Assembly (NCBI GenBank): GCA_963840255.1
Contig: CAWIYB010000005.1
Coordinates: forward strand, 997,843 to 1,061,842
DNA: 64,000 nt
Direction of reading: 5' to 3'
Source: an uncultured Chloroflexia bacterium
GTDB taxonomy: Bacteria; Chloroflexota; Anaerolineae; Anaerolineales; UBA4823
Below, one piece after another: positions 27,787 through 51,587 of the stretch (position 1 is the stretch's first letter; each line of letters begins with the position of its first letter). A program made the translations under genes and the position numbers. Below the pieces are notes generated by a model, which searched no databases, was not told the DNA's origin, and saw nothing but the letters and a program-made list of their open reading frames with translations.

Positions 27787-27858
27787 GATATACCTCTCCA
27801 ATTACGTTCAATAAGTTGAAAGTATTATACTCTGTCTGACATTTGCTTCAATCCTCGC

Positions 27859-28267
27859 TCATGATCCAGACAGCCTGCATCGCAGCAGCGGTTGGATGTA
27901 CCCACCTTCATCCTCCGGATCATGGGGGGTGACTTGCCTAATCATGATAGAGGTGGAGTAAACAACATCCTGGACCCATTTAAAGGAAATATCAATCAAG
28001 TGGAATTTACCCGAAATAAAGAATCCAAAGGGTATCGTCCCGATAACCAAATCCTTCTTAGATATTCTCAATAGTTTGTTCCAGGTCTTTACTGACCTGT
28101 TGTCGTAAATTAATCAGCCTGACAAAGAGTGCCAAAACGACCAATCCACATATGTTAATCACCACAGTACCTATTACGTTTGCGCCTAATCCACTCCGTA
28201 TCAATAACGGACCAATCAACGCGCCTAGCGCATCACCTAAAGACAAAAAAGCCAATGTAGCCGCCAT
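27859..28267 (-). pseudogene. Remnant of an MFS-type transporter (C-terminal TM helices in two different frames)
   Basis: ORF 28058-28267 (LAFLSLGDALGALIGPLLI...VVLALFV) and ORF 27859-28071 (LVIGTIPFGFFISG) are TM-like fragments in different frames. There is no N-terminal part. They sit in an AT-rich region of about 1 kb with no intact gene. Confidence 0.4.
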
Positions 28268-28791
28268 AAATACACCGCGTGCCTGAGTGGATGAAAATGA
28301 AGCCCTTCATGCCTATACTGTTGGTCCTTCTTTTGCGGCGGGATTGGATAACAAATTGGGGAGGTTGGTACCTGGCTATTTGGCAGATTTATTGGTTTTA
28401 AACCAGGATATGTTTTCCGTCAACCTCATGGGGAAAGCATAAACAAAGCCACTGTCAGTGATGATTGGTGGAAATTAGATAGCGAATAATCTATACTTGA
28501 AGGCTAATGTATAACAAACAGGATGGAGAAATATCCGCGAGTACCGGTATCATTCTAACGTGATTTTCCAGGTAAATTGATTCTTAATCTTATATAAAAA
28601 TACCTCATTTGAAATCTTCCAACCGAGAACTCGAATCCCGTACCAACTGATTAAGGTCGTGGTCGCCGATGTCCAACCAGTAAATGGGCGCTCTGATCTT
28701 TTCTATGTCTTATATCTGGTAAGCAGGCCTGTCCAGAGGGGATAAAGTAGCAATGATATTTGTATTGAACACCAAAATCCCCTTTTCTCTT

Positions 28792-30240
28792 TCATCCTCT
28801 TCTATCGCTAAGGATTTCTCTTTCCGCCCTTCGCAAGATCTGATCCAGTTCCTCGCAGACCGCACCAGGTAGTGGGTCAACAACCGCTTCCTCAAGGATA
28901 CCTGTTACGATTTCCCGTGCTTTGGCGTACATGGATGGCTTGCCAAGTTCGATCCAGGCTTCATATGAATTATGACCTATCAGCTGCGGTGTGTATATCT
29001 CCGTACTCCTGGCTGCTTTGCGTGTGCTCCTGGTACCCAAAAAATGCCCGCCGGGTCCAACATGGGCGATATCTTCAAACAAGTCTTTCTCTGCAGAACA
29101 ATCCACACCTTCTGCCAGGCGCTGACAAAGATGGGCAATCTCGTTATCCACCACGATCTGTTCCAGGATAAGAAGCTGGTCACTTTCAATCTCGCCGAAA
29201 CCCACCAGGAGATCTATACCTACCAACACAGCTGGCAAAGTGGTGATCAGCTTCTCAAGTACTGCTTCAGGACCAGCTTGCCTGGCATCGGAGGTGAACC
29301 CAGCGCCTCCGGTGGGAAAACCGTAGTATTTCCCCATCACCGACAGCGCGGCGGATTGCAGCCCCATCTCGGGCACACCCGCCAAATAAGCTCCGCTGCG
29401 AAAGTCCACCGTGCCGGTGGCGCTGGAATAAATAATCGGCCTGCCAGGGTGGGCCAGCTGGAAGATCACCAGGGAGGATAGCATCTCAGCATTCGCCAGA
29501 GCAATATTCGAGTACAGGCTGGCGGGACCGGTGGTGCCATTGACCGGCATCGGCATGCACATCACCGGCAGCCCAACCTGACCCAGCTCAAGGTAGGCGT
29601 CCAGCATCGGCCCATCATGGGTGAGGGGAGCCACTGGGCAGTAGATGAGGGAATAGGCATTGCTCCTGCGTAACGAATCTTCGCTGCCCAGAATGGCAGA
29701 CAGGCCTTCGACGAGGTAAGGCACCTGCTTCACTGTATGCAGCTCATGCTCGCCGTGTTTGGAGCTATAGCGCGCCATGCAGAAGAACTCATACAAGGCG
29801 CGGATATTCGCCGGCTGATCTTCAGCACATGTGGGTGCCCATGCCATCACCCCCATATCCATCTGCTGAAAGATACGCAAGGCATTCTCGATATCCTTAC
29901 TTGTCCCATAACGCCTCTCGCCGGTATGGAAATCAAGAGCGAAAGCGGCCGTCCCATCGATGCAATAACGGGTATGGGGAGAGGGTAGAGGAAAGTTATA
30001 TTGGGGGTTGCGGGCGCCTAACACGAATGACCGGGGTGCGGTCTTAAGTGCCTGCTTGAGCAGCTCTGGAGGAATTTTGGCAATCCCATCTTCGGGGTTA
30101 ATTTTTACCCCATTTTCTCGTAGGATTTTTGGTGCCTGGTCACCATGAAAGCGGATACCCACTTCTTGTAGGATGCGCAGGCTCATCTTATGAATGCGGT
30201 GTTGCTCATCTTCAGTCAGGATTTGAGCGGTTAATTCCAT
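28792..30240 (-). CDS. MttB-superfamily (trimethylamine methyltransferase-like) protein, non-pyrrolysine, paralog 1
   Basis: Full-length 482 aa with no in-frame TAG. The N-terminus reads IH..SL.IL.EVGI.F and the central region reads PLTHDGP...LELGQVGLPV...PVNGTTGPASL. It is the most divergent of the four. Confidence 0.88.
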   Translation of the reverse strand: MELTAQILTEDEQHRIHKMSLRILQEVGIRFHGDQAPKILRENGVKINPEDGIAKIPPELLKQALKTAPRSFVLGARNPQYNFPLPSPHTRYCIDGTAAFALDFHTGERRYGTSKDIENALRIFQQMDMGVMAWAPTCAEDQPANIRALYEFFCMARYSSKHGEHELHTVKQVPYLVEGLSAILGSEDSLRRSNAYSLIYCPVAPLTHDGPMLDAYLELGQVGLPVMCMPMPVNGTTGPASLYSNIALANAEMLSSLVIFQLAHPGRPIIYSSATGTVDFRSGAYLAGVPEMGLQSAALSVMGKYYGFPTGGAGFTSDARQAGPEAVLEKLITTLPAVLVGIDLLVGFGEIESDQLLILEQIVVDNEIAHLCQRLAEGVDCSAEKDLFEDIAHVGPGGHFLGTRSTRKAARSTEIYTPQLIGHNSYEAWIELGKPSMYAKAREIVTGILEEAVVDPLPGAVCEELDQILRRAEREILSDRRG

Positions 30241-30286
30241 ACTTCCTCCAGGTCATCATGCCGCGGGGATTGATTACTCGGTGACC

Positions 30287-31753
30287 TTATGGGGTAGATT
30301 TCGATTTAGCTTCACTATCCGCAACCGCCAGGATGCGAGTCAGCTCAGATTTTTGGACCTCGTCCAGGGGTGTGGGGTGATGGTTCGCCAGGATCCAGTC
30401 AACCTTCTCACGCGCCACTTCTTGCGGGTCTCGAAAACCACCGGTGGGATTCGGCTGACCGGTCAGGCCTGAGTACTGCCGCTGGCGCAGATGAGTACGG
30501 GTGTGCTTCTGAGCCAAGAAATTACCCCGCGGACCAACTTCCTTTATTACATCCAATGCCAGAGCCTCAGGACTGGTATCCAGGCGGGAGGCTTCAATAC
30601 GTACGCGGTGGTACACATCGGCATCCAGCAAGATCGACTCGGGGTAGAGCAAGGTGCAGGATTCAACCAGACCCAGTCCGCTGCCGGTCTCTGCGCCGGT
30701 GAGCGCACACAACAACAAAGATGATTCGGCCTCAGCAGCCGACTGCCACCCTGGCACCTGGGCGTCGGTACCAAAGATACCAGCCAAGCTGGGCACGCCC
30801 CAGCGATGAGCCATCTCAACTCCGATGGGGTATAGCTGGGAGCCTTCCAGGGTCGAGCTAAGGTAAGCTCCAGTATGGGGATGCATGCTGCCGGGCAGCA
30901 GTGAATGGAAAACCGGCGCCCCCGGATGAGCCATCTGCATCAACACCAGAGCGGAGACAATCTCTGCGTCTCCAATTACCAGAGCGCCTGAGATGGTCGC
31001 CGGACCAGTGGAAGCGATATTGACCATCGACATGAAGCCAACCGGGAGCCCTGCTTCCGCAAAGCACAGGGCAGACTCCAAACCGTCCCGGTCTTGCGCC
31101 AAAGGTGCAATGGTGCAAACCAGCAATGAGAGCGGTGGGCGAGCCCGTCTCACCTGCGTATTGCCAGCGACCACATCCGCCATTTCGATGGCATAGCGAG
31201 CAGTCCACTCACCCATAATCGTCTCGGACTGTACATGTTTCACCGTGTTATTGAAGGAGGCATCCAATTCATGCAGGGGCGCCGTGGCAGGGAAATCCTG
31301 GGCGCTGACAATGGGCCAGTAGAAGCTGAGGGCGCTGAGATAGTCTGAAACACGCGCCATGGTTGCCACATCATCCTTTTTGGACTGCCGCCTTTGACGG
31401 GTGGTGAAATCGATGGTTTCCACCCCACAGCCATCGGTGGCACAGAACATGGTTTTTCCATCCAGTTGCAAATCGAAGGAGAGGAGGCGCGCTCCCATGG
31501 TGTAAAAACGGGGTGCATGGCTCATCGCCTCCAGCACAACCTCACGAGGTAGTTTCACCAACATACGGGTAAAATCGACGGTTGCGCCATGCTCGTTATA
31601 TACCTGCAGGGCTTTTTCCGACGGGCAATGGATACCCACTTGCTCCAATATCTCCATAGTGGCAGTTTGCAGTGTATCCAGCTGGGCATCCTCCAGGATT
31701 TGAGTGTGATAGGCTGGAGTGATCGGTTGAAGGGCAGGGGTATCACTATTCAT
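30287..31753 (-). CDS. MttB-superfamily protein, non-pyrrolysine, paralog 2
   Basis: About 65% identical by eye to paralog 3 (DGCGVETIDF.TRQRR...VKHVQSET.MG...APGAPVFHSL). The ATG at 31753 is preceded by GAGGTGA. The GTG at 31771 in the ORF track would overlap the upstream stop. Confidence 0.9.
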   Translation of the reverse strand: MNSDTPALQPITPAYHTQILEDAQLDTLQTATMEILEQVGIHCPSEKALQVYNEHGATVDFTRMLVKLPREVVLEAMSHAPRFYTMGARLLSFDLQLDGKTMFCATDGCGVETIDFTTRQRRQSKKDDVATMARVSDYLSALSFYWPIVSAQDFPATAPLHELDASFNNTVKHVQSETIMGEWTARYAIEMADVVAGNTQVRRARPPLSLLVCTIAPLAQDRDGLESALCFAEAGLPVGFMSMVNIASTGPATISGALVIGDAEIVSALVLMQMAHPGAPVFHSLLPGSMHPHTGAYLSSTLEGSQLYPIGVEMAHRWGVPSLAGIFGTDAQVPGWQSAAEAESSLLLCALTGAETGSGLGLVESCTLLYPESILLDADVYHRVRIEASRLDTSPEALALDVIKEVGPRGNFLAQKHTRTHLRQRQYSGLTGQPNPTGGFRDPQEVAREKVDWILANHHPTPLDEVQKSELTRILAVADSEAKSKSTP

Positions 31754-31764
31754 GCTAATCACCT

Positions 31765-33231
31765 CTAGCACAATTCTTTATCAGCAGAGGCAAGGATGCG
31801 CACGAGCTCGGCTCGCTTTTCAGGTTCCAACGGCTCTGGCTGGTGGTTCTTGCGGATCCAATCCACTCTTTCGATGGCCACCTGGCGCGGGTCGCGATAT
31901 TTACCATCGTCACCGAGCTGGTGGGTGATGCCTCTCACCAGCGATTCACGTAGGTGGTTACGTGTATGCCTCTGTCCCAGATAGTGACCACCTGGCCCGA
32001 CGGCGTGCACGGTATCAAGGGCAAGCGTGTCTTCATTCACATCCAGGTTCATCAGCTGGTAGCGGGCGCGCTGGTAGAGGTCATCATCCATGATGACCTG
32101 CTCGGGGTAAAGCAGGGTGTAGGTTTCGGAAAGGCCCATGCCGGTGACGATATCCGCACCCGACAGCCCCGCCAAGAATGGGTCTAGCGCCACTTCGCCG
32201 GCCCCCTGCCAGGAGCCCGGTTCATGGGCATCTGTACCATAACAAGCCCCGAGGGAGGCCATACCCCAATGGTGGGCCATCTCCACGGGGGCATAGTGTG
32301 TGCGGCTGTCGAGGGAATAGCTAATGTAGCCGCCCGTACGGGGGTCCACCCATGCCTGCATCAGCGAGTGGAATACCGGTGCTCCAGGGGCGTGCAGCTG
32401 CATCAACACAGCAGCACTGATGATCTCAGCATCACCCATGGCGAATGCTCCAGCCAGAGTGGCAGGGGCTGTGGTACCCAGGGTGGGCATAGCAAGGAAG
32501 CCAACCGGTAAACCAGCTTCGGCCAATACCAAAGCACCTTCGATGCCCGCTGTATCCTGCATCAGGGGGGCGATGGTGCACACCACCAGCGAAAAAGTTG
32601 GCCTTCGGCGCATTTCTTCTTTGCTACCGGCAATTACTTCAGCCATCTCCACTGCGTAGCGGCAAGGGATGGCGCCCATAACCGTCTCACTCTGGACGTG
32701 CTTAACCGAATTGTTCCAGGCGGCATCAATCTCGTGCAGTGGGGCTGTCTCACCATGATCCTGTGCACTGACCATCGGCCAAATAAATCCGATCGAGGGC
32801 AGGTAGTCGGAGATGCGCGCCATGGTGGCTACGTCCGCCTTGCATGATGGGCGTCGTTGGCGGGTTTCAAAGTCAATTGTTTCAACACCACAGCCATCAG
32901 TGGTGAAGTAAGTTACCCCTTCTTCCAGCTGCAGGTCATACGCAGGCTGGCGTGCTCCCAGCTTAAAATACCTGGGGATGGTCGACAGTGCCTTCAGAAC
33001 GAAACCAGGCTGCATTCTGACGATTTGAGATTGCCAATCCACCTGCGCACCGTGTTCGGCGAAGATGGTAAGCGCCTGTTTGGAAGGGAAACGCACCCCG
33101 GTTTTTTCCAATATCTGCAAGGTAGCCTGCTGTAAACTTTCCAGTTGCTCTTTGCTGAGAAACCTCAGGCGATAAGAAGTTCTCAACGGCTCAAGGGGGG
33201 GGTATTGGGTTGGCAAGGATTCATCCTCCAC
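31765..33231 (-). CDS. MttB-superfamily protein, non-pyrrolysine, paralog 3
   Basis: Full length with no internal stop. The start is ambiguous: GTG at 33231, or TTG at 33216 preceded by GGAGGA. Confidence 0.9.
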   Translation of the reverse strand: MEDESLPTQYPPLEPLRTSYRLRFLSKEQLESLQQATLQILEKTGVRFPSKQALTIFAEHGAQVDWQSQIVRMQPGFVLKALSTIPRYFKLGARQPAYDLQLEEGVTYFTTDGCGVETIDFETRQRRPSCKADVATMARISDYLPSIGFIWPMVSAQDHGETAPLHEIDAAWNNSVKHVQSETVMGAIPCRYAVEMAEVIAGSKEEMRRRPTFSLVVCTIAPLMQDTAGIEGALVLAEAGLPVGFLAMPTLGTTAPATLAGAFAMGDAEIISAAVLMQLHAPGAPVFHSLMQAWVDPRTGGYISYSLDSRTHYAPVEMAHHWGMASLGACYGTDAHEPGSWQGAGEVALDPFLAGLSGADIVTGMGLSETYTLLYPEQVIMDDDLYQRARYQLMNLDVNEDTLALDTVHAVGPGGHYLGQRHTRNHLRESLVRGITHQLGDDGKYRDPRQVAIERVDWIRKNHQPEPLEPEKRAELVRILASADKELC

Positions 33232-33292
33232 AAAATGTATTCTTTTCTAGGTTTAGGGTTTACGGTTATTTACTCACGACAATTCTTCATGG

Positions 33293-34723
33293 CTATTCGC
33301 TGATTCGGGCTCGCCTTTCCAGTGTGACCAACTCACGCTCGACATCGTCGGGTAGTGACAAGGGGTGATGATTTGCCAGCTTGTCTAGAACATCCTGATG
33401 AATTTCCTCTAATAAACCGGGGGATCCGGAGCTGATCCACTGCTCATAGCTGCCATGCAACCCGAGATGGCTGTGATACACCTCCCCTGAATGCACAGCC
33501 TGGCGAGTGGATTTGTGTGCCAGGTAATTCCCGCCGTGTCCCACTGCAGCGATCACCTCGACCAACCAGCTATCCGTATGGCTGAGAATCCCCACGCTAA
33601 GGCGTTTACAGCGCTGGATGACTTCAACATCGATCAATAGCTGCTCGGGGCTGAATATGGTGGAGCCTCCGAGCAGACCCGGAGCAACAAGCAGGTCTGG
33701 CCGCGCCAGGATGGGCAGAGAATAGTTCAAAGCGCGCTCATACTCGGCCTGGAGGCAGGGGATATAATGATCAGATCCACCCACGCTAGATTCGACCGGG
33801 AGCTTGTACATCCTTGCGATTTGAGTGACCGCCGCACCCAGGAGAGAATGCTCTACTTCACCGCTTCCGAACCTACCCGAGCGCATGTCTGCAATGACTG
33901 GAGCAGCTGCGTAAATAAATGGCGTGCCCGGCGAAGCCGACTCTGCGAGGCACAGCATGGCGAGGGTCTCGCAATTGGCCAATACCAGTTCAGAAATCAA
34001 GGTAGCAGGGCCAGATATGCCCAATAGCGGCATGGTCATCACCGCCAATGGGATGCCCCAACCGAGAGTCTCCAGGTAGGCATCGGTGTAAGCACCTTCG
34101 ATGATCAATGGGGAGGCCGGGCATACGATGAACGAAATAGGTAGGGTTTGCTTGAACCCCTCCCGACCGCCAAACACCACCTGAAACACCTCCAGCATCC
34201 AGCGGCTTTCTTCAGGAGTCACAGTGGCATCCTGCACGTGCTTGGAGAAATTCTGGAAAACCGCTTTCCAGTAGGCAACGATGTCTCCTGGAGTATGCCC
34301 CCAACATCCTTCGATCACGCTCCAATACACATCGATTTCATCCAGGCAGTCACCCAAACGAGTGGCCAGATACCAATCTTCTAAAGTCGCCTGTCGGCGG
34401 GATTCGTTTTGCGCGTCATAGGTGTAGATAGCGCCGCCATCCAGAACCACACCACAATCCCCGCGGTTCATTGTAAGTGACTTACCCTGGCGACGAGAGC
34501 CCAGGTTGAATTCTTTGGGAGCCTGGTTGAGACATTTTTCTACCAGACCGCGCGGAAAGCGAACGATATGTGCAGTTCCATCAACGATTGCACCGGCCTG
34601 CTGTAGGTAAGCTCGACCGCGCCCGCTGTCCACCCGCACACCCGTTTCAGACAGGATCTTCAAAGTTTCTTCATGAATGCGGCTGCATTCGTCAGCTGAC
34701 AATACTTGCAACAAGGTCTCCAT
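33293..34723 (-). CDS. MttB-superfamily protein, non-pyrrolysine, paralog 4
   Basis: Full-length 476 aa. Its ATG overlaps the stop of the upstream permease gene (TAATG, 34721-34725). Confidence 0.9.
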   Translation of the reverse strand: METLLQVLSADECSRIHEETLKILSETGVRVDSGRGRAYLQQAGAIVDGTAHIVRFPRGLVEKCLNQAPKEFNLGSRRQGKSLTMNRGDCGVVLDGGAIYTYDAQNESRRQATLEDWYLATRLGDCLDEIDVYWSVIEGCWGHTPGDIVAYWKAVFQNFSKHVQDATVTPEESRWMLEVFQVVFGGREGFKQTLPISFIVCPASPLIIEGAYTDAYLETLGWGIPLAVMTMPLLGISGPATLISELVLANCETLAMLCLAESASPGTPFIYAAAPVIADMRSGRFGSGEVEHSLLGAAVTQIARMYKLPVESSVGGSDHYIPCLQAEYERALNYSLPILARPDLLVAPGLLGGSTIFSPEQLLIDVEVIQRCKRLSVGILSHTDSWLVEVIAAVGHGGNYLAHKSTRQAVHSGEVYHSHLGLHGSYEQWISSGSPGLLEEIHQDVLDKLANHHPLSLPDDVERELVTLERRARISE

Positions 34724-35637
34724 TAGACCTCCCCGATTTTTTGTAATACTTTATACGGATCAAATGCATCACGCAGTCCGTCGCCAATGTAATTAATGGA
34801 AATAACCGATAGGAAGATCATCATGCCGGGGAAAATCGCCAGCCAGGGATATTTAATCATATGATCCTGCGCCCCACTGAGCAAGTTGCCCCAGGAAGGG
34901 GTGGGTGGTTGAATGCCAAACCCCAGATAACTCAACCCCGACTCTTCCAGAATGGCATAAGCCACTTCCAGGGTGGCTTCCACGATGACCGGTCCGATGG
35001 CGTTGGGAAAAATGTGTACGGCGATGATGCGAAAACTGTTCGCCCCCAAAGCGCGCGTCGCAGTGACGAAATCCATCTCACGGATCGCCAGATAAGATGC
35101 GCGCACCAGGCGGGCGACAAACATCCATGATAATAAACCGATGACTGCTGCAATGGTCAGCACCGGGTTGCTTTTTAAAAACGGCGCATCCACCTCACGC
35201 AATATGGCACTTAATAAGATCAACACCAACAGTGAAGGCAGAGCCAAAGCTGCGTCGGTGATGCGCATCAGGATGTTATCCAACCGCCCACCGAAATAAC
35301 CGGCAATCGCCCCTACGGGCACGCCAATCACCAATGTGATTACCATGACCGAGAAGCCTACTGCAAGGGAAACCCTGCCACCATACAATACGCGAGTCAG
35401 CAGATCTCGCCCCAGGGCATCCGTCCCCATTGGATGAGAGAAGGAAGGCGGCTGGTACCGTTCAGTCATATCCCGCTTCTCTGGATCGTAAGGCGAAAGA
35501 CCAGCAAAGGTCACTGCCAGGATGATGCAGCTCAACACAATTGTACCCATGATTGCGCCTGGATGCTTGCGGAAGCGCCTCCAGATGAGACTGCGCATAG
35601 TTTCTGGCTTTGATAATCGAATCGCGATCTCAGTCAT
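34723..35637 (-). CDS. ABC transporter permease, OppC/DppC-like
   Basis: N-terminal OppC-type region plus a BPD_transp_1 core (EAA-loop region ATRALGANSFRII). The ATG at 35637 overlaps the upstream permease stop by 8 nt. Confidence 0.9.
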   Translation of the reverse strand: MTEIAIRLSKPETMRSLIWRRFRKHPGAIMGTIVLSCIILAVTFAGLSPYDPEKRDMTERYQPPSFSHPMGTDALGRDLLTRVLYGGRVSLAVGFSVMVITLVIGVPVGAIAGYFGGRLDNILMRITDAALALPSLLVLILLSAILREVDAPFLKSNPVLTIAAVIGLLSWMFVARLVRASYLAIREMDFVTATRALGANSFRIIAVHIFPNAIGPVIVEATLEVAYAILEESGLSYLGFGIQPPTPSWGNLLSGAQDHMIKYPWLAIFPGMMIFLSVISINYIGDGLRDAFDPYKVLQKIGEV

Positions 35638-36727
35638 AATGTATGCGCGGGTCCAATCTGGCATACACAACGTCAGCCAGCAAGTTAGAAATGATCACGA
35701 CAACCGTCCCAAGGGTTAAGATCGCCATCAGCAGTGGATAATCTCGATCTAGCGCAGCCTGGTAATATAACCGGCCCATCCCGGGCCAGGAGAAGAGGAT
35801 CTCCACGTACAGGGAGCCGGCAAATATATATGGCAGGTCCAGGGCAAATATCGTCACCAGGGGAAGAAGAGCATTACGCAGGGCATGTTTGAATAATACA
35901 TTCCGTTCTTGTAAACCTTTGGCGCGGGCGGTTCGGATATAATCCTGGTGAATTACATCCAACATACTGGAACGTAGAAACCTTGAATACCAGGTGACCC
36001 AGCCTACCACGCCCATGGTGACCGGCAAGATCAGATGCTTGGTCCAGTCGATGAGCGAAAAGCCCATCCCCAAAGAGTACATACCCCCGCCGGGCAACAG
36101 TGGTTCTCCGTTCAGCGGGTTTTTCAGCAATCCATAAAAAACCAAGATCAATATCAGACCCAGCCAGAACTCTGGGATTGCCTGTCCAATAAATGATAAT
36201 GTAGTGACTGTGATATCGAAAATCGAGTACTGCTTCACCGCTGAAAGAACTCCAACAGGTATGGCGATGATTGCCACAACGATCAGGGTCACCGACATCA
36301 GGTAAACGGTATTTTTTAGATAACTACCGATCGTATCAGTGACTGGTTTACGGGTGCGGAAAGAAATCCCAAAATCGCCGCGTAAGATGCCTTTCGCCTG
36401 CCCAGGACTATCAGAATTCAAGTAAGTACGAGGATCTAAACATTGAATTATTGGAGTAAAAATTCCCGCTTTTGGCGCGGCAATTTGTTCCACCGGGCGG
36501 GTCCAATCATTTCCTATCAGCCAATACACATATTGAACGCAGATGGGTCTATCCAATCCAAATTGGTGCTTAAGCATCGCGGCTTGTTCAGGACGCATTG
36601 TGCGTGATAACCCCCTACCTGCCAGTGGGCCACCAGGTGCCAGATTGACTAGTGCAAACAAGACGATGCTGACGATGAACATCAGCGGAATTGCCTGCAA
36701 GAGCCTTCTGATTACATAGTAGCCCAC
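35630..36727 (-). CDS. ABC transporter permease, OppB/DppB-like
   Basis: N-terminus MGYYVIRRLLQAIPLMFIVSIVLFAL and EAA-loop region YIRTARAKGLQERNVLFKHALRNAL. Confidence 0.92.
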   Translation of the reverse strand: MGYYVIRRLLQAIPLMFIVSIVLFALVNLAPGGPLAGRGLSRTMRPEQAAMLKHQFGLDRPICVQYVYWLIGNDWTRPVEQIAAPKAGIFTPIIQCLDPRTYLNSDSPGQAKGILRGDFGISFRTRKPVTDTIGSYLKNTVYLMSVTLIVVAIIAIPVGVLSAVKQYSIFDITVTTLSFIGQAIPEFWLGLILILVFYGLLKNPLNGEPLLPGGGMYSLGMGFSLIDWTKHLILPVTMGVVGWVTWYSRFLRSSMLDVIHQDYIRTARAKGLQERNVLFKHALRNALLPLVTIFALDLPYIFAGSLYVEILFSWPGMGRLYYQAALDRDYPLLMAILTLGTVVVIISNLLADVVYARLDPRIHYD

Positions 36728-36770
36728 TAATCCTCCATCTTACCCGAATTCAAAACCATTAAACTTACAA

Positions 36771-38546
36771 TTACTTCAAAGTCCAATCCGCTGCATTCCA
36801 GGTTACAAGGTCATTGGGGTTCGATTGAACACCTTGTAGACGTGTGGTATGGGTATTGGCATCGATAGTGGTGAAGAGTAACAGCTCGGGTACCTCTTGA
36901 TCCAGAATCTTAGCCATTTGGCAGAATACATCCTGGCGTGTAGCTTCATCCAGTGTATATGCCTGGCTGATCAGATCATCGACCTGTGTGTTCATGTAAC
37001 GCCCATAGTTATAACCTGTGTCAGGAACAGCTGCTTCGCTGGAATAATAGCTCCACAAGAAATCAGTCGGATCGCTTCCACCATATCCATCGTCCCAGAT
37101 ATCGATATCAAAATTGCCATTCTGTTCAATCCCGCCGTCGGTTGAGGCAGCCCAAAGCACACTGCCTTCCACCACGCTGAGGTCGAGACTGATCCCAATA
37201 TTTGCCAGATCCTCGGCGATGAACTGCTGGGTCAACTCCAATGACTCGCCATACTCGCCATAAGTAATGAATTCCATCTCCATCTTATAGCCTTCGGGAG
37301 CTCCGGTGGTACAACCGTGGCATTCACGTATACTATCTCCGTCCTGATCAATCCAGCCGGCTTCTTCCAGTAATGTAGCTGCGGCTATTGGATCGTAAAC
37401 CGGTCCCGGGATATCACAGGTATTGTACGGAGGTCGGAAGAATTCAGTCCAGGTGGGGACGACATAACCGAGGAAGAATTCCTTCGAAATGGTTTCCACG
37501 TCGATCGCCATGCGTACAGCCTGGCGTACGCGCACATCCGAGAACACCGGATGAGGTGTGGCTGCCGGATCGGTTGTGCCTTTAGCTGCCAGATTAAAGA
37601 AGATACGCATGACCCATCGGTTGTAGGGGCTCATGCTCACCTCAACATCAGGCTGATTTTGTAACTCAGCAATGATCGGCTCAGTCGTCCACATATCCAG
37701 GTCAGCATCACCTTTTAGCAGCATTTGTTTGCGCACGGTCTCGTCAGGGATGACGCGCACAATTATCTCATCGATGACAGGTTTGCCCGGCTCGAAGTAA
37801 TTGGGGTTTCGTGCAAAGGTCATGTGGTCACCGAGAACCCATTCCGTTAGCGTATATGGACCATCGCTCAAAGGATTGGAAGCACAGTCCCATTGGGTGA
37901 ACCCTTGCGATGCATCACAATAATGAGCCGGCCAGATGGCCATCTGCTCACCGCCAAATTGGGTCAGATAACCCGGGTAGATGGTGTTGTAATGCACCAC
38001 CACCGTGGTGCCATCGATTTTTTCAACCCCATCGATATAATCAATCCCCTGGATCCAGGCACCTTTCTCCGGGTCTACCAAGGCGTCATAGGTGAAGACT
38101 ACATCATCGACAGTGACTGGCGTACCATCCGACCATAGAATATCGCTCCTCAGTTTCCAGGTTACATCCATGGTCCCATTGACATCATCAACAACAACTC
38201 CACCATTGTCTATAGTTGGAAGCTCGGCAGCTAATTCAGGATAGGGATTCCCGTTCGCATCCAGGTCCGCCAATCCTAATAGCACCAGTTTCATGACCAG
38301 TGAGTCATAACCTGTATCGGTAATGGTGGGGTTAAACGATGGCGGATCTTCAGCGATGACGATCACGATCTGGCTTTTCGCTGGGAGAGGTGTGGGAGCG
38401 ACCGTGTCTGTTGGTGCTGCTATTGTCTCTCCCGTCACCGGTTGATCTACGGCAGGCACACCTGTACTTTTTGCACACGCAGAAACTAGTATCGCAAATA
38501 TAAGTAAAATAGTTAATCTTGGTAAACACATTGATTTCATATTCAT
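36771..38546 (-). CDS. ABC transporter substrate-binding lipoprotein, family 5 (peptide/nickel/opine type)
   Basis: Lipobox VSAC with a Pro/Thr linker. The length of about 590 aa and the overall pattern are typical of family-5 SBPs. Confidence 0.88.
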   Translation of the reverse strand: MNMKSMCLPRLTILLIFAILVSACAKSTGVPAVDQPVTGETIAAPTDTVAPTPLPAKSQIVIVIAEDPPSFNPTITDTGYDSLVMKLVLLGLADLDANGNPYPELAAELPTIDNGGVVVDDVNGTMDVTWKLRSDILWSDGTPVTVDDVVFTYDALVDPEKGAWIQGIDYIDGVEKIDGTTVVVHYNTIYPGYLTQFGGEQMAIWPAHYCDASQGFTQWDCASNPLSDGPYTLTEWVLGDHMTFARNPNYFEPGKPVIDEIIVRVIPDETVRKQMLLKGDADLDMWTTEPIIAELQNQPDVEVSMSPYNRWVMRIFFNLAAKGTTDPAATPHPVFSDVRVRQAVRMAIDVETISKEFFLGYVVPTWTEFFRPPYNTCDIPGPVYDPIAAATLLEEAGWIDQDGDSIRECHGCTTGAPEGYKMEMEFITYGEYGESLELTQQFIAEDLANIGISLDLSVVEGSVLWAASTDGGIEQNGNFDIDIWDDGYGGSDPTDFLWSYYSSEAAVPDTGYNYGRYMNTQVDDLISQAYTLDEATRQDVFCQMAKILDQEVPELLLFTTIDANTHTTRLQGVQSNPNDLVTWNAADWTLK

Positions 38547-38598
38547 TTCTCGCGCCTCCTTTCACAAATCTACATATGGTTAGTACGCCCCTGTGAAG

Positions 38599-39795
38599 CT
38601 AGCTAGCCTGAGAGTATTCACTTTTCTCTTCACGTATATCATAAGGGAAGTGATATTCCAACATCTTGTTCAGGAAGGGTCGCGGGTCAAATGCCTCTGG
38701 TCCATGCACCCCGCTCCCTTTCCATAACCCCTGCGCTAGCAGCTCCATGGTGATCACCGGCCCGGTGCCGGTCTGCAAGGAGACTGCCTGGCAGCCGAAA
38801 TTTCTCATGCTTTCCTCGTTATCGGTTGCCTGGTAAATATAGACCTCACGCTTTTTGCCATCTTTCACCCCAGTCACCCAGGTGCCTACACAGGTCTTTC
38901 CACTCATCCTGTCGCCGAGTGTCGCCGGGTCTGGCAAGCAAGCTGCCACCACCTCGATGGGGGATACCATAACCCCTTTCACATTTACAGGCTTTTTCTG
39001 GTGCATCCCAAGCATTTTGATCACCCGAATGACATTGATGAACTTCTCACCTAACCCATATTTAAACGTCACCCGATTACATTTGATGTAGCGCGGGATA
39101 AGCACTACCTCTTCGTGCTCAATATCCACCACCTCAAGTGGACCAATCCCTTGCGGGAAGTTAAACAATTCGATGCTTTCGAATGCTGGGATGGTGTACC
39201 ATCCACGCCCAGCCTCCCACACCAGCGGTGGGTCGGTACATTCTTCGATGGTATCCAGAATCGAGAAAGCCGGGGCAAACTCATAACCGCTCACTTCCAG
39301 GGCTGCTCCATCGCGGATGCCGATTTCGTCTATGGTATCGAACAGCTCGAGGGCGGCAAATTTGGCGAAGATGTCACTTACGCCCGGGTCCATGCCGTTC
39401 CCTAGGATAGCAAGCAAACCCTTTTCCTTCCATTTTTCAGCCAGAGCCCATTGATGGCTGCCCATATTCGCCCCATAATCCGACATGGCCATATCAAGAT
39501 AATCACAGCCTGCTTCGAATGCAGCATCGAATATCGTATCATTATAGAAATTACTCACCGCGTTCATGACAAGATCAATGTCATATCGGCGCGCGACTTG
39601 AATGATGTGGGAAATCTCGCGTGCGTCTACTTTTTCGATGGGAAATTTATCTGGGCTGCCTAGCCGACTTTGAACTGCCTGGAGACGCTCAAGGTTGTAA
39701 TCTGCCAGCACCATTTTCTCCAGCCAGGGCTGATATTGAGCTACAATTGCGATCGCTTCACCCACTCCCCCTACGCCGACAAGTAAAATCTTCAT
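38599..39795 (-). CDS. Saccharopine-dehydrogenase-family NAD(P)-dependent oxidoreductase
   Basis: N-terminal Rossmann fold MKILLVGVGGVGEAIA. The length of about 400 aa and the central and C-terminal regions resemble saccharopine DH / carboxynorspermidine DH / homospermidine-synthase-type enzymes. Confidence 0.8.
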   Translation of the reverse strand: MKILLVGVGGVGEAIAIVAQYQPWLEKMVLADYNLERLQAVQSRLGSPDKFPIEKVDAREISHIIQVARRYDIDLVMNAVSNFYNDTIFDAAFEAGCDYLDMAMSDYGANMGSHQWALAEKWKEKGLLAILGNGMDPGVSDIFAKFAALELFDTIDEIGIRDGAALEVSGYEFAPAFSILDTIEECTDPPLVWEAGRGWYTIPAFESIELFNFPQGIGPLEVVDIEHEEVVLIPRYIKCNRVTFKYGLGEKFINVIRVIKMLGMHQKKPVNVKGVMVSPIEVVAACLPDPATLGDRMSGKTCVGTWVTGVKDGKKREVYIYQATDNEESMRNFGCQAVSLQTGTGPVITMELLAQGLWKGSGVHGPEAFDPRPFLNKMLEYHFPYDIREEKSEYSQAS

Positions 39796-40142
39796 AATTC
39801 TCCTCCCATCCTGAAATACTATCCAAAAATATCCACTGGTGGATCGTTGGAAGAAGCCGGTACACTTTGTGGATTTATCTAAGCAATGTTAGGGCATTGA
39901 AATGTCATCGACAACTTGCTTATTGGTTAATTTTTTTCAAAATATCGGGTTAGTTCAATGATTACTATAGCAGAATATTTACCTAAGGTCAATAATTCCG
40001 GGTTGGGTAATCAATTCCCGGTTTTATGAGAGTTTAGGTAAAGATATCGACATTTCTGTTCAGAAACTTTATAAAACCTTAAGGTTGACTCTTTCACTAC
40101 TCAAAAATGCTCTCCGAGCTGTGTAAGGAACATTTCGTCGAA

Positions 40143-41138
40143 CTATTCCACAGCCCAGCAAGCTACTAGATGATCTTTGTTAACCTCGCGGAATGTTGGT
40201 TCAGTTATACTACACACATCCAGCGCAACCGGGCAGCGAGGGTGAAAACGGCAGCCACTAGGTGGGTTTAATGGACTGGGTACATCTCCTTTCAGGACAA
40301 TGCGGTTGCGGTTAAGCGTAGGATCAGGGATGGGGATCGCAGACATTAATGCCTGTGTATACGGATGCAACGGATTGCGAAATAGCTCTTCGCGTGTGGT
40401 CATCTCGACCAGTTTTCCCAGGTACATCACTGCCACCCGATCAGAGATATTTTCGACGACGCTCAAATTATGTGCAATGAAGAGGTATGTGAGATTAAAT
40501 TCATGCTGCATCTCCTTCAGTAGGTTGAGCACCTGTGACTGAATAGAGACATCTAATGCAGAAACGGGTTCATCAGCGATAATAAATTTCGGACGTAATG
40601 CCAGCGCACGAGCGATGCCGATGCGTTGTCGCTGACCGCCAGAGAATTCGTGTGGATAACGGCGGGCATGGCTAGCGTCCATCCCTACCATTTGCAGCAT
40701 TTCGGTCACGGCCTCAAAACGCTGCTGCGCGGTTCCAATGTTGTGAATCCTTAATCCTTCACCAATCGATTCACCAATCGGCATGCGCGGATCTAAAGAA
40801 GCGTATGGGTCCTGGAAAATAATTTGCATATTACGGCGCATACCTTTAAGGTCCTTGCCTTTTAATCGGGCAACATCTACCCCATTAAAGATCACCGAAC
40901 CACTTGTCGGCTCGATCAATCTCAGCAGAGTGCGCCCAACCGTGGTCTTACCGCAACCCGATTCACCCACAAGACCAACTGTCTCGCCCTCGCGGATATT
41001 AAAACTAATATTATCTACCGCTTGCACCCAAGCGACTACATGCTGAAATAAACCCCCCTTTACCGGAAAATATTTAACTAACTGCCTGATCTCTAGCAGG
41101 TTTTTCCCGTAATCAATGTTTGAAGGAAGATCCGTCAA
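40143..41138 (-). CDS. ABC transporter ATP-binding protein, OppF/DppF-like
   Basis: Walker [10 protein letters not shown], signature FSGGQRQR, Walker B IIADEP and the Opp C-terminal motif [11 protein letters not shown]. Confidence 0.93.
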
Positions 41139-41173
41139 GATTGATATCTCCAGGTTGATAGGATCAAGAAACC

Positions 41174-42190
41174 TTATTGCCGAAGCTCTTTAGCTTCAGG
41201 ATCCTGATAGAGCCAGCAACGTGAGAAATGATTAGGCTCAAAAGGCAGTAACTCTGGTTCTTCTTCGGTGCAGATTAATAATTGATTTTCAATGCGTGCC
41301 CGACAGCGAGGCGCAAATCGGCAGCCCGGGGGAAGGTTTAGAAGGTTCGGCACAGAACCAGGGATTACTTCCAGTATTTCCTTTACTTTGCCTAGTATGG
41401 GGATAGAGGCTAGCAATCCTTGAGTGTAAGGATGCAATGGGTTTTTAAATAAGGATAAAACCTCAGCATGTTCTACAATTCTACCGGCGTACATAACCGC
41501 TACCCGATCTGCCATCTCGGCGATCACACCCAGGTCGTGGGTGATTAAAATGACCGCGGTATTCATGTGAGTACGTAAGTCTCGGAGGAGGTCGAGAATT
41601 TGCGCTTGGATCGTTACATCCAACGCTGTGGTGGGTTCATCAGCGATCAGTAGCTGCGGGTTTAACGCCAATGCCATGGCAATCATTACACGCTGTGCTT
41701 GTCCACCTGACAATTCGTGCGGGTACGAATGAGCTTTACTGCCAGGATCGGGAATCCCAACTAGGTGTAACAACTCGACTGCTTTATTCCAGGATTCTCC
41801 TTTACCCATGCCCTGGTGAATTTGAAAGACCTCCGCCACTTGGTTTCCAATCTTAAAGACTGGATTTAAACTTGACTGTGGCTGTTGAAAGACCATTGAG
41901 ATGCGGTTACCTCGCATTTCTACCATTTGTGACTCTGAAAGCTCCAGCAGGTTAACGCTATCAAAGATGATCTTCCCTTCTACTATCTTGCCCGGAACAT
42001 CGATTAGCCGCATAATGGAAAGAGAGGTCACGCTTTTACCACAGCCAGATTCCCCCACGATCCCCAGGACCTCACCCCGCCCGACCGTAAAATCCACTCC
42101 ATCCACAGCTTTAACTACACCATCTTCAGTGAAAAAGTAAGTTTTTAGATCACTGACTATTAATAATGGACTATCACCAGAGGTAATCAC
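41174..42190 (-). CDS. ABC transporter ATP-binding protein, OppD/DppD-like
   Basis: Walker [10 protein letters not shown], signature LSGGQAQR, Walker B LIADEP and the C-terminal motif [11 protein letters not shown]. Confidence 0.93.
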
Positions 42191-42308
42191 AGGGCTATCA
42201 CCAATTTAATAACTAATAGGATAGACTGAATAAAGGGTAGGTGAATTATTATAATCCGAAAATAGTCGCGTGGTGGTATTTACGTTTTCGTAGTGAATTA
42301 ACCGATTT

Positions 42309-44744
42309 TCAATCCGGCAGCAAGCTTTCCCGTTCAGCTTCAATAGCCAAAGTCTTTTCTGCCTGACCAGCCAATTGATAAGCCTGGCTTAGCTGTTTGT
42401 ACAAATCACTTAAATCCGCCTTATCTGGTATGAATGATGGTGCAGCCTCCTGCACGAATTGGTAAGCGTGCTCAAAGTGGGCTATGGCCTCACTCACCGC
42501 TGAGAGACATAATGCTTCTCGCCCAGCCGCCAGGCTGTAGCGGAAAGCCTCTTGTGACAACCCGGCAGCCAGTGCGTGATGGGTGAGAATTGCAGCGGAC
42601 TCCCCACCCTTTTCGAGGACTTCCAATGCCCGGCGGTGAAAAAGCCGCCGCCGCGCATCTCCAGCTTCGGTATACACCACATCGCGAAGCATATCGTTGG
42701 TAAAAGCGTATTCACCGACCACACCCGCCTGCGTTGCTTCCAATAACAGCCGCCCGCTGATCAATTCATCCAGGGCGGGTAAAGCCAGGTCTTCGCTCAA
42801 GTTGGAGATGGCACACATGCGCTCGAACGTGATGCGATGTTCAAGCACGGCAGCACCTGCCAATATGCTGAAAGCATTCGGGCTGAGACGGTTTAATCGC
42901 GAGCGGATGACCGCATGCACGGTAGACGGGACGCGCACCGCTTTCCCCAGATCGTGATCAGAGTCCACTGAGAAGGTCCATAGATTCTCACTCCGCCGTT
43001 TTGGGTGTAACACACTCCGTTCGAGTAAATCCTTGAGCGTCTCAATCAGATAGAAAGGCTGCCCACGCGTTTCATCGTACAACCATTGGGCAAAGTCAGT
43101 ATCGGGTGGAGAAAGGATGGACAGCATCATCTTCACTGTCTCATTTTCATCGAGGGGCTCCAGCTCGATATGAACCGGGGTCACCTCGCGCACTATGCGC
43201 TCTAACCATATACTCAAGCCTTGCGGGCTGCCTGCTGGGAGAGGTTGAGTCATTGGGTGCAAAGCATCTGACCGCAGGCAGGCCAAAAATAGAATCCGTG
43301 CAGCGTTATCCTTCCAGCGCCGTATGGCATATTGCAATAGGTCTAATGTGGCGCTGTCCGCCCATTGCAAATCGTCGATGAACAGTACCAGGGGCGCTTG
43401 TTTAGCCAGGGCCAACATACTTTGCACCAGGGGTTCGTACAGCTGCGCCTGGTTGTCCTCTGCTTGCATATGATGAGATTCCACAGGAGGGTGGGATATA
43501 TGGGGATGGTATTGGCGCAATTCCGGGAGCAGCTGGCTTAGCGGCGACAACCAGACCTCATCTATTTTGTCTGTTAACGAGTTTTCAATCGCCAGTCGCA
43601 TTCGGAGTGCCTCCACCAGCGGTTGAAACGCTAAATGGATGCCACTCTCAAAGGCACTTCCTTGCAGCAATTCAGCTCCCTGGGCACTGACCCAATGGAT
43701 GAATTTCCTGGCCAGGCGGGTCTTGCCAATCCCAACCTCGCCGCGCAGCACTACGAGCTGAGGCTGGCCTTCAGTAGCGCGTCCATATGATTTGATGATC
43801 GCCTGGTATTCTTTATTGCGCCCGGTAAACAGGCGTCCCAGGAAATTGATCGAAGTGTCTGGTTGCCGTGGATGAGGAGGAGTTTTACTGACATTAGGAT
43901 GAGCGAGGGGAGCTTGTAAGCGAATGGTCTGATCTAATGCTACTGTATCTGGTTCCGGTTCAATACCCAATTCGGCCGCTAGAATGGCGCGACATCCCTC
44001 ATACGTCTCCAGTGCTTGCCCGCGCTCGCCGGCCGCGAAGTGCGCCCGCATCTTACGGCGATACGCCACTTCGTTCAGCGCATCCAGGGCAATCCAACGC
44101 GAAGCTGTCTCTGTAGCACCGGCAAACTCGCCATGTGCAAATTGGATTTCGGATAAGCGGTCGAGGATCAGGCCCAACCGGCGATTCCAGACTTCGCGTT
44201 GAATGGCAGCCCAATCATCAAAATCAGGTGCATCACCTAGTGAAAATCCGGCCAGAAAATCACCACGCTGGCAGGCTACCGCTGATTGTAATAATGGCAG
44301 GCTGGCTGAGCCCTCCAGCACCGTCCTGCTTGAACGATCGGCACGTGCTTGAGCATACGCACGTTCTACGGTTTGCAAGTCTAAATCGGTATTTGCGTCT
44401 GGATTCAGGCTCAGCGTATTATGGGTGACGAGAAGATAGGAGGTTTGAGCCTGTCCACTCGCCTGGCGTAAGGCTGTTTGCAAGTGATCGAGTGTGTTGC
44501 GCAGCGATCCGTGGCTGCGCTCAGGGCTGGCTTCCGGCCACAGCAGGGCAGCCAGAGACTCGCGCGGTTGTGGGTCTGACGCTATCGCCAGGTAAATTAG
44601 TAGGGCTAGCGTCTTGCGAGTGGGAAAGCTCACCAAGTGTTCACCCAGGTGGACTTCGGGTGGTCCCAATGCAAAGAGACGTAATGGTATTGCCTGGTCA
44701 GCTATCGCAAAACCCCTTGTGACGATTTTGAGACTCTCCATCAT
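42309..44744 (-). CDS. SARP/AfsR-like regulator: winged-helix DNA-binding domain + BTAD + AAA/STAND ATPase + C-terminal helical (TPR-like) repeats
   Basis: N-terminal wHTH reads RKTLALLIYLA...RESLAALLWPE. BTAD reads ...ALNEVAYRRKMRAHFAAGERGQALETYEGCRAILAAELGIEPEPDT. Walker A is GEVGIGKTRL and Walker B is LFIDDLQWAD. Confidence 0.88.
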   Translation of the reverse strand: MMESLKIVTRGFAIADQAIPLRLFALGPPEVHLGEHLVSFPTRKTLALLIYLAIASDPQPRESLAALLWPEASPERSHGSLRNTLDHLQTALRQASGQAQTSYLLVTHNTLSLNPDANTDLDLQTVERAYAQARADRSSRTVLEGSASLPLLQSAVACQRGDFLAGFSLGDAPDFDDWAAIQREVWNRRLGLILDRLSEIQFAHGEFAGATETASRWIALDALNEVAYRRKMRAHFAAGERGQALETYEGCRAILAAELGIEPEPDTVALDQTIRLQAPLAHPNVSKTPPHPRQPDTSINFLGRLFTGRNKEYQAIIKSYGRATEGQPQLVVLRGEVGIGKTRLARKFIHWVSAQGAELLQGSAFESGIHLAFQPLVEALRMRLAIENSLTDKIDEVWLSPLSQLLPELRQYHPHISHPPVESHHMQAEDNQAQLYEPLVQSMLALAKQAPLVLFIDDLQWADSATLDLLQYAIRRWKDNAARILFLACLRSDALHPMTQPLPAGSPQGLSIWLERIVREVTPVHIELEPLDENETVKMMLSILSPPDTDFAQWLYDETRGQPFYLIETLKDLLERSVLHPKRRSENLWTFSVDSDHDLGKAVRVPSTVHAVIRSRLNRLSPNAFSILAGAAVLEHRITFERMCAISNLSEDLALPALDELISGRLLLEATQAGVVGEYAFTNDMLRDVVYTEAGDARRRLFHRRALEVLEKGGESAAILTHHALAAGLSQEAFRYSLAAGREALCLSAVSEAIAHFEHAYQFVQEAAPSFIPDKADLSDLYKQLSQAYQLAGQAEKTLAIEAERESLLPD

Positions 44745-51585: not shown

Positions 51586-51587
51586 GT

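Follow-up and report, generated by a model that had tools for sequence, protein, structure and literature searches.

Four divergent non-pyrrolysine MttB paralogues in a conserved Opp-type importer module of Anaerolineales

For only six of the many thousands of proteins in the MttB superfamily is the substrate known, and in each case it is an acidic quaternary amine (PMC12155760). Characterised members that lack pyrrolysine (Pyl), such as MtgB of the MtgB/MtgC/MtgA system of Desulfitobacterium hafniense and MtpB, MtcB, MtyB and MthB of Eubacterium limosum, belong to family PF06253 and provide the first methyltransferase (MT1) of a three-component layout that is completed by a corrinoid protein and a second methyltransferase (MT2). 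E. limosum encodes 42 MttB paralogues, and MtpB, MtcB and MtyB share one corrinoid protein and one MT2, MtqC/MtqA, with the MT1 genes lying apart from these shared partners (PMC12155760). In the case of Ruegeria pomeroyi, mtgB, mtgC, mtgD and ramA are scattered, split-MetH components are shared, and the glycine betaine that is demethylated aerobically is taken up through a BCCT carrier (PMC12478193). The residues with which MtgB binds glycine betaine include the aromatic pair Y97/F356, which makes cation-pi contacts, and His348; R312 forms a salt bridge with the acidic group of the substrate and is an arginine in all characterised members (PMC13080624). In the Pyl-containing enzyme MttB, Tyr364 is the residue that activates Pyl (PMC9842639). 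Here, we describe a 64,000-nucleotide (nt) stretch of DNA from an uncultured Chloroflexia bacterium (contig CAWIYB010000005.1), called the window below, in which four MttB-superfamily genes, M1 to M4, are joined to an Opp/Dpp-type ATP-binding cassette (ABC) importer and an oxidoreductase of the saccharopine dehydrogenase (SDH) family.

The locus has in common with the Mtg- and Mtp-type systems the MT1 fold and the family of its four methyltransferases, and orthologous clusters in related genomes match the three-component layout, with a corrinoid protein of about 215 amino acids (aa) and an MT2 of the Pterin_bind family. Like the E. limosum and R. pomeroyi systems, it would depend on partners encoded elsewhere, but it is unlike the R. 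pomeroyi system in the glycine betaine substrate and BCCT uptake of the latter. It differs from Mtg- and Mtp-type systems in combining four divergent paralogues in one operon, in having an Opp/Dpp-type importer with a family-5 solute-binding protein (SBP) rather than a BCCT, OpuA or EamA carrier, in its attached oxidoreductase of the EC 1.5 type, and in its Anaerolineales host. No description of MttB linked to Opp-type importers, SDH-family enzymes or Anaerolineae was found in the literature. We regard it as probable, though with some reserve, that the genes form a vertically conserved catabolic unit in which Opp-type import, MttB-family MT1s, a corrinoid protein, a Pterin_bind MT2 and an oxidoreductase would act together. 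The genes and sites concerned are the following.

28792-30240, minus strand: M1, non-Pyl MttB-superfamily methyltransferase, 482 aa, last gene of the module (PF06253, E=3.5e-80, residues 5-475)
30287-31771, minus strand: M2, non-Pyl MttB paralogue, 494 aa as the longest open reading frame (ORF), likely start at ATG 31753 (PF06253, E=8e-59)
31765-33231, minus strand: M3, non-Pyl MttB paralogue, 488 aa (PF06253, E=3.7e-53)
33293-34723, minus strand: M4, non-Pyl MttB paralogue, 476 aa (PF06253, E=1.7e-60)
34723-35670, minus strand: OppC-type ABC permease, probable start at ATG 35637 (OppC_N and BPD_transp_1)
35630-36727, minus strand: OppB-type ABC permease (BPD_transp_1_N and BPD_transp_1)
36771-38546, minus strand: family-5 SBP, a lipoprotein of 591 aa (SBP_bac_5, E=9e-70)
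38599-39795, minus strand: saccharopine-DH/carboxy(nor)spermidine-DH-family NAD(P) oxidoreductase, 398 aa, first gene of the module (Sacchrp_dh_NADP and Sacchrp_dh_C)
39964-39992, minus strand: promoter-like site in the 347-nt gap 5' of the SDH-family gene (consensus match only)
40143-41138, minus strand: OppF-type ABC ATPase, outside the conserved module (ABC_tran and oligo_HPY)
41174-42190, minus strand: OppD-type ABC ATPase (ABC_tran and oligo_HPY)
42309-44744, minus strand: regulator with BTAD and AAA_16/STAND NTPase domains, 811 aa (Pfam)
27802-28791, no strand: non-coding scar 3' of M1, 990 nt, with short ORF fragments only

An earlier note on this DNA had described four MttB-like ORFs of 476-494 aa on the minus strand that are free of internal TAG codons, and all four are present where it had placed them, none with an internal TAG. 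The stop codons of M3 and M4 are themselves TAG; read-through is excluded, since another in-frame stop follows one codon later in both genes. The gaps of 11-61 nt that had been given for the MttB genes hold with the M2 start at ATG 31753, the longest M2 ORF overlapping M3 by 7 nt. Likewise, the 8-nt overlap of the two permease genes holds with the OppC start at ATG 35637, a start that agrees with the gene calls in relatives, and the ATG of M4 does overlap the OppC stop in a TAATG junction. The family-5 SBP, the SDH-family gene and the two Opp-type ATPases are all confirmed by their Pfam domains.

Nucleotide synteny with the three closest relatives (L006, L007 and L010) runs from window position 39806, just 5' of the SDH start, to 28830 or 28814, about 38 nt (in L010, 22 nt) before the M1 stop, and ends on both sides. 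As the shared stretch covers exactly these genes, the conserved unit is a module of about 11 kb (28792-39806) with the order SDH-SBP-OppB-OppC-M4-M3-M2-M1. Both flanks, OppD, OppF and the regulator on one side and the scar with a dihydropyrimidine dehydrogenase (DPD)-like fusion gene on the other, are peculiar to the window genome. Purifying selection is strong on each of the eight module genes, with ratios of nonsynonymous to synonymous substitution (dN/dS) of 0.04-0.11 against relatives at a dS of about 0.6-1.7; the values, which average over both lineages compared, are 0.05-0.06 for M1 and 0.04 for M3. A promoter and terminator scan of the region gave site counts at chance level, equal to the shuffled expectation, and a single good promoter-like site, a sigma-70-like match 5' of the SDH-family gene (TTGACC-17-TATAGT with a TG extension, 10/12 matches). 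A search of the whole window and of the block with Rfam found no riboswitch and no other RNA at E<=1.

Conservation was surveyed in 148 loci annotated by tblastn with the window proteins and proteins from relatives, among which 45 unique species-level clusters were defined by MttB genes at least 45% identical to those of the window. A scan of species-representative genomes with the SBP returned 68 loci, all from Anaerolineales/Chloroflexota, across which the OppC permease is 56-93% identical. The proposed link between the MttB genes and the Opp-type importer is borne out by these clusters, with permeases in all 45 and the SBP in 44, and 44-45 of the 45 retain the order SBP-OppBC-MttB over 47-92% protein identity. 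Four MttB genes are present in 32 clusters and three in another 12, some of which are cut by contig ends; M2 is absent from eight. Recurrence of the same array in 45 species-level genomes puts the association far beyond chance. Soils, sediments, groundwater and wastewater are the sources of the Anaerolineales species, at least 45 in number, that have the module.

A paralogous operon with the order corrinoid protein-MttB-MttB-SBP-OppBCDF is found in at least 12 other Anaerolineae species (L080, L083, L087, L090, L091, L093, L095, L096, L098, L102, L109 and L110). One of its MttB proteins is about 40% identical to M2/M3 and the other about 26% identical to M4, its SBP is about 27% identical to that of the window, and its two MttB groups have invariant residues of their own, with Ser and His at the position of MtgB R312. 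The recurrence of such operons makes the combination of MttB, an Opp-type importer and a corrinoid protein a general theme in the class.

The predicted MttB fold of M1 to M4 is unambiguous, as all four match the PF06253 profile at 181-270 bits against a cut-off of 25 and over nearly its full length (about positions 28-498 of 500 for M1, M2 and M4, and 26-437 for M3). M2 and M3 are further apart than had been thought: they had been put at about 65% identity and are 52% identical. Every other pair is 27-31% identical; M1 and M4 had been described as much more divergent. Against TIGR02369, the model for MttB sensu stricto, they score 302-348 bits, under its 525-bit cut-off, and their identity to MtgB and MttB is 24-29%. 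In searches of the PDB with M1, M2 and M4, MttB (7xcl) was the best or joint-best match (E of 1e-46 to 3e-58), equal to or ahead of MtgB (9yce/2qne). Judged from sequence, the four belong to the MttB superfamily but fall outside both the trimethylamine (TMA) enzyme and the MtgB-type enzymes for acidic betaines.

Two alignments, one with 129 orthologues and the other with 263 Anaerolineae MttB proteins, place M1 to M4 in four separate and strongly constrained orthogroups, each with its own invariant pocket residues. The orthogroups comprise 39 (M1), 30 (M2), 44 (M3) and 39 (M4) sequences, 152 in all with the window copies included. The reference sequences grouped with them were three, MtgB (9yce), MttB (7xcl) and the Sinorhizobium meliloti protein 4yyc; all three fall outside every Anaerolineae MttB group, and no such group in the 263-protein set holds a solved or characterised protein. 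The residues at the positions that matter in MtgB and MttB are as follows.

MtgB Y97 position: M1 G; M2 G; M3 G; M4 G
MtgB R312 position: M1 G/S/T/C; M2 L; M3 L/M; M4 E (152 orthogroup sequences)
MtgB H348 position: M1 deletion or V; M2 deletion or S; M3 deletion or T; M4 deletion or V
MtgB F356 position: M1 D; M2 C; M3 Y; M4 S/A
MttB Pyl334 position: M1 T; M2 G/A; M3 G; M4 G/S/N
MttB Tyr364 position: M1 V; M2 S; M3 T; M4 V

At the H348 position, the first alignment has a one-residue deletion, and the letter is the residue that is aligned there in the second alignment, in which the columns of MtgB H348 and MttB Tyr364 coincide. In the M1 orthogroup, Asp is invariant at the F356 position and Thr occupies the Pyl position in 37 of 39 sequences; in the M2 orthogroup, Leu is invariant at the R312 position and Cys is found at the F356 position in 29 of 30. 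The M3 orthogroup has Leu or Met at the R312 position and an invariant Tyr at the F356 position, making M3 the only paralogue to keep an aromatic residue there and the one exception to the loss of the MtgB-binding residues from the window proteins. In the M4 orthogroup, Glu is invariant at the R312 position. With the Pyl-containing TMA methyltransferase MttB of Methanosarcina barkeri (7xcl) the paralogues have Gly110 in common, and M1 also Thr111, whereas in-frame UAG, pyrrolysine and Tyr364 are lacking. The earlier note had asked what stands at the Pyl-equivalent position, and the answer is no pyrrolysine in any of the four (T/G/G/G in the window copies of M1 to M4), with Tyr364 replaced throughout by V, S, T and V.

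An undescribed N-methylated substrate, as had been suggested for this locus, is the best reading of these pockets, because the MtgB binding residues Y97, R312 and H348, as well as Pyl and Tyr364, are missing from M1 to M4. The missing arginine, together with the acidic residues of M1 and M4, suggests substrates other than simple acidic betaines. Loss of R312 would point to different substrates and not to a loss of corrinoid coupling, since paralogous Anaerolineae MttB groups that adjoin corrinoid genes are also without it. It is improbable that the substrate is glycine betaine, another known betaine or TMA, and that an ordinary peptide importer lies next to the methyltransferase genes incidentally. 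Such an arrangement would fit the SBP and OppBCDF proteins, which score best against generic oligopeptide/nickel models with equivalog scores under the cut-offs, and 11 further loci in which an SBP-OppBC orthologue (57-66% identity) occurs without MttB genes. It does not sit well with the overlap of the M4 start and the OppC stop, with the near-invariant SBP-OppBC-MttB order, with the simultaneous absence of Pyl, Tyr364, Y97, R312 and H348, or with the sub-threshold TIGR02369 scores and the low identity to MtgB and MttB.

The question of a corrinoid partner bears directly on the proposed catabolic unit. The earlier note had reported that the window holds no B12-binding protein, methylcorrinoid:tetrahydrofolate methyltransferase, RamA-type activase or betaine carrier, and a Pfam scan of 43 ORFs (essentially all long ones) agrees, with no B12-binding, Pterin_bind/MtrH, RamA-type or BCCT/OpuA domain. 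A number of orthologous clusters do have a corrinoid protein or an MT2. A corrinoid protein of 214-217 aa with B12-binding_2 and B12-binding domains (E=3e-28; motifs GDIHEIGK...SALLTTT...GGAP) adjoins the array in 10 of the 45 clusters, and in the fragment L078; its gene follows M1 in most of them, ahead of the Pterin_bind gene if that is present, and stands at the front of the cluster in L119 and L136. A Pterin_bind (PF00809) gene for a protein of about 283 aa (E=2e-31) follows M1 or the corrinoid gene in 13 of the 45, and again in L078. At least one of the two partners lies beside the array in 20 of 45 clusters, plus L078. The arrangement is the canonical MT1-corrinoid protein-MT2 layout of MtgBCA/MtqCA-type systems, and in many more Anaerolineae the same corrinoid family stands first in sets of the form corrinoid protein-MttB(x2-3)-Pterin_bind.

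The step from an absent partner to corrinoid-independent chemistry, which had been offered as an alternative, fails on this evidence. Direct methyl transfer to tetrahydrofolate or another acceptor on the MttB fold would agree with the lack of a partner gene in the window, with the lack of an adjacent corrinoid protein in the closest ('Class A') relatives, and with the replacement of the known substrate-binding residues. Yet orthologues of the same four proteins adjoin corrinoid or Pterin_bind genes in the 20 clusters just mentioned, R312-less paralogous groups adjoin corrinoid proteins, and Class A keeps Pterin_bind, an enzyme type known to demethylate methyl-corrinoid in such systems. Corrinoid-independent chemistry is also without precedent in the family (PMC12155760, PMC13080624), and is very improbable here.

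For the window genome, we infer that the corrinoid protein, the MT2 and the activase act in trans, because synteny with the closest relatives breaks at the point where those carry Pterin_bind. The scar (27802-28791) sits where relatives carry corrinoid and/or Pterin_bind genes. Absence of the partners from 64 kb is in any case weak evidence, given that orthologous loci carry them and that published systems share distant ones. For instance, in two Class B species, Betzabe_MAG055 (L030/L116) and W58_115 (L054/L108), no corrinoid gene is adjacent, yet a corrinoid, MttB and Pterin_bind set is found on another contig. Activases are commonly encoded away from their methyltransferases. The closest relatives have a gene for a B12-dependent methylmalonyl-CoA mutase, which lies near the module in two Class A genomes.

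Several results weigh against this account. Searches of the window by tblastn with the Pterin_bind and corrinoid proteins of relatives gave nothing significant, and the B12 motif DxHxxG..SxL..GG occurs in no frame of the window. Among the best 120 Pterin_bind homologues (at least 66% identity), none was detected on the 1.1-Mb contig of the window. In the approximately 13 Class A genomes, Pterin_bind adjoins the array without any adjacent corrinoid protein; in two of them, the 10 kb 3' of Pterin_bind hold none either, and scans of the genome collection with the corrinoid proteins of L024 and L136 returned no Class A genome among the best 80 loci each. No activase gene was identified in any locus, and no RamA-type domain in the scanned window ORFs or among the tabulated genes of L001-L004, L233 and L234, no dedicated RamA query having been used. 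On the side of uptake, the best PDB match of the SBP has an E of only 1e-23, too remote for its ligand to be deduced.

Some of the same observations could mean that the module is a non-functional, decaying remnant, orphaned when a rearrangement removed Pterin_bind and any corrinoid gene. The synteny break and the 990-nt scar with gene fragments directly after M1 are what such an event might leave, and the failure to detect a close Pterin_bind orthologue on the contig fits as well. Among the scar fragments, one resembles an amidohydrolase C-terminus (28287-28442, plus strand) and one part of a membrane protein (28058-28267, minus strand), and tblastn found in the scar no remnant of Pterin_bind or of the corrinoid protein C17. 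Decay is quite unlikely in view of eight intact ORFs at a dN/dS of 0.04-0.11, although this two-lineage average is still compatible with a very recent loss, of the species that lack adjacent partners and carry sets on another contig (Betzabe_MAG055, W58_115), and of the retention of cognate-type ATPases and a promoter-like site.

Two other candidates for parts of the system were rejected, the DPD-like gene (25288-27801) and a luciferase-like gene, both of which are absent from all 68 related loci. The former, on the minus strand and 3' of the module, encodes an 837-aa fusion protein with Fer4_20, Pyr_redox_2, a weak DHO_dh and Fer4_21.

The oxidoreductase at the head of the module has both domains (PF03435 and PF16653) and the N-terminal GxGxxG of carboxy(nor)spermidine dehydrogenase and saccharopine reductase, and its PDB matches are 4ina (E=7e-65) and 8deb, a carboxyspermidine dehydrogenase (E=2e-53). 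It differs from carboxy(nor)spermidine dehydrogenases in scoring 217 bits against the carboxynorspermidine synthase equivalog NF043000, whose cut-off is 800, and in having no carboxyspermidine decarboxylase partner. The linkage of this gene to the module, as first noted in the window alone, recurs in 16 of the 45 clusters and in three positions: 5' of the SBP, between M2 and M4 (L044, L068), and beside the corrinoid gene (L136). The three different positions argue for a functional linkage, and the embedding of the gene in an importer and methyltransferase operon suggests a catabolic role in C-N cleavage. In L136 (4207-20100) there are two SDH copies, one about 5 kb 5' of the corrinoid gene (54% identity to the window SDH) and one directly after it (62%), in the order SDH ... 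corrinoid protein, SDH, M3, M2, SBP, OppB, OppC, M4.

A dimethylglycine dehydrogenase (DMGDH)-like gene with the full DAO-FAO_M-GCV_T-GCV_T_C architecture is found in another 7 of the 45 clusters, on the same strand, directly 5' of the SBP and never together with the SDH gene; in most clusters that have either, the gene lies just 5' of the SBP on the same strand. SDH-family and DMGDH-like enzymes are both of the EC 1.5 type and act on CH-NH bonds. The DMGDH-like gene is commoner where M2 is missing (5/8 versus 2/37 loci, Fisher p=8e-4), a correlation that ignores kinship and is only suggestive. Same-strand ORFs that follow M1 in the DMGDH-type clusters read as a histidine kinase, an OmpR-type regulator and a membrane protein, and were set aside as partners.

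The catabolic unit proposed here would work as follows. The Opp-type ABC system, consisting of the SBP, OppBC and the adjacent OppDF, would import one or several related methylated ammonium compounds other than the known acidic betaines. Each of M1 to M4 would be a substrate-specific MT1 that passes an N-methyl group to the small corrinoid protein in its Co(I) state, from which the Pterin_bind MT2 would hand it to tetrahydrofolate, with the corrinoid protein, MT2 and activase supplied in trans in this genome. The SDH-family NAD(P) enzyme would then cleave a secondary or tertiary C-N bond left in the demethylated skeleton, and in other lineages a DMGDH-like flavoenzyme may take its place. Gene content, conservation, purifying selection, the differences in pocket residues and the corrinoid and Pterin_bind genes of orthologous clusters are observed; the catabolic direction, the supply of partners in trans, what the oxidoreductase does and what kind of substrate is used are the conditional parts of this scheme. 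More tentatively, the module may serve a new class of MttB substrates, namely methylated amines that are non-acidic or resemble peptides, polyamines or opines and that enter through an Opp-type system; its paralogues might divide related compounds between them or strip successive methyl groups, including, with acidic pockets and no Pyl, those of tertiary and secondary amines, leaving an EC 1.5-type oxidoreductase to finish C-N cleavage.

A refinement of this model has the paralogues acting in series, or as heteromers, on a single molecule, with tertiary and secondary amines among the intermediates. It would account for the co-occurrence of two deep MttB lineages (M2/M3-type and M1/M4-type) in both orthologous and paralogous operons, for the invariant acidic pocket residues of M1 (Asp) and M4 (Glu), which could bind protonated amines, and for the enrichment of the DMGDH-like gene, a tertiary and secondary amine demethylase by type, where M2 is missing. 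That enrichment, however, rests on few and probably related lineages, and the characterised non-Pyl members all remove only the first methyl group of a quaternary amine (PMC12155760), so that sequential demethylation lacks a precedent among them and is unlikely.

The importer itself has the composition of an Opp/Dpp/Nik-type system of the PepT family, with a family-5 SBP, two BPD_transp_1 permeases and two ABC_tran/oligo_HPY ATPases, a type that suggests a larger or a peptide-, opine- or polyamine-like substrate. The SBP carries a lipoprotein signal, with the lipobox ..LVSAC followed by a Pro/Thr-rich linker. Its homologues with 64-87% identity number at least 120 and come almost entirely from metagenome-assembled genomes of Anaerolineales/Chloroflexota. 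The ATPase genes, which had been counted with the block, are not part of what is conserved, since just two of the 45 clusters have OppD/OppF genes next to the module. In L061, where this is clear, an OppF orthologue (82% identity) lies convergent directly after M1 and an OppD orthologue (79%) adjoins the module, in an arrangement unlike that of the window; in L068, a single OppF-like gene, 47% identical, lies beside the module. Because orthologues with 79-82% identity adjoin the module in L061, OppD and OppF of the window are probably the cognate ATPases.

The regulator upstream of the ATPases had been described as a SARP/BTAD-AAA-TPR protein. Its BTAD (E=2e-19) and AAA_16 (E=2e-21) domains are recovered, the TPR part gave no Pfam match at E<=0.1, and no N-terminal winged-helix domain (Trans_reg_C) was matched at the same threshold. 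The implied tie between this SARP-type regulator and the module does not hold, as no orthologue is near any of the 45 related clusters and the gene is specific to this genome.

The module departs from the rules known for this superfamily three times over, in having no carboxylate-binding Arg, four distinct pockets in one operon and a peptide/opine-type importer. Its clear limits, strong conservation and experimental tractability set it apart from the very numerous uncharacterised MttB paralogues, and the comparative map names the corrinoid protein and the tetrahydrofolate methyltransferase with which M1 to M4 can be paired in vitro. Its presence in at least 45 species, and the frequency of related corrinoid-MttB-Opp operons in the class, suggest an unrecognised route for the turnover of methylated nitrogen, and a demand for B12, in a very abundant and poorly understood group of bacteria.

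Genes next to the module in some relatives are also concerned with methyl metabolism. In Class B/C loci (L024, L034, L052, L056, L057 and others), genes for an S-adenosylhomocysteine hydrolase, a PfkB-family (adenosine-kinase-like) kinase and an IF-2B/MtnA-family isomerase are conserved 5' of the SBP, on the opposite strand and usually nearest to it, so that genes of the activated methyl cycle and methionine salvage stand beside a methyl-transfer module. Convergent with the module at its 3' end, Class A relatives (L233, 10907-13182; L234, 11279-12761; L004, 19813-21370) carry a conserved gene set for an S-adenosylmethionine-dependent methyltransferase (L233 and L004), a protein of about 252 aa with the amidinotransferase fold, similar to arginine deiminase and dimethylarginine dimethylaminohydrolase (DDAH), and, in L233 and L234, a 229-aa protein that has no Pfam match. 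Methylarginines yield methylamines through the action of DDAH-type enzymes, and the presence of such a gene here may or may not be coincidental.

Elsewhere in the window, the minus strand at 1205-10051 encodes a 2192-aa sensor with Ser/Thr protein kinase, AAA_16, GAF, PAS, GAF, HisKA_3 and HATPase_c domains, after which come two LuxR-type response regulators and a receiver-only protein. On the plus strand, 51420-60024 holds a 2631-aa ORF with GT2, glucoamylase-like and GH94 supersandwich domains. Of the GH94 catalytic domain it has no more than the first 110 positions, and positions 135-327 are found in an overlapping 252-aa ORF (59266-60024). The arrangement looks like a cyclic beta-1,2-glucan-synthase-like gene broken in two near 59266-59315, through a frameshift or through faulty assembly.

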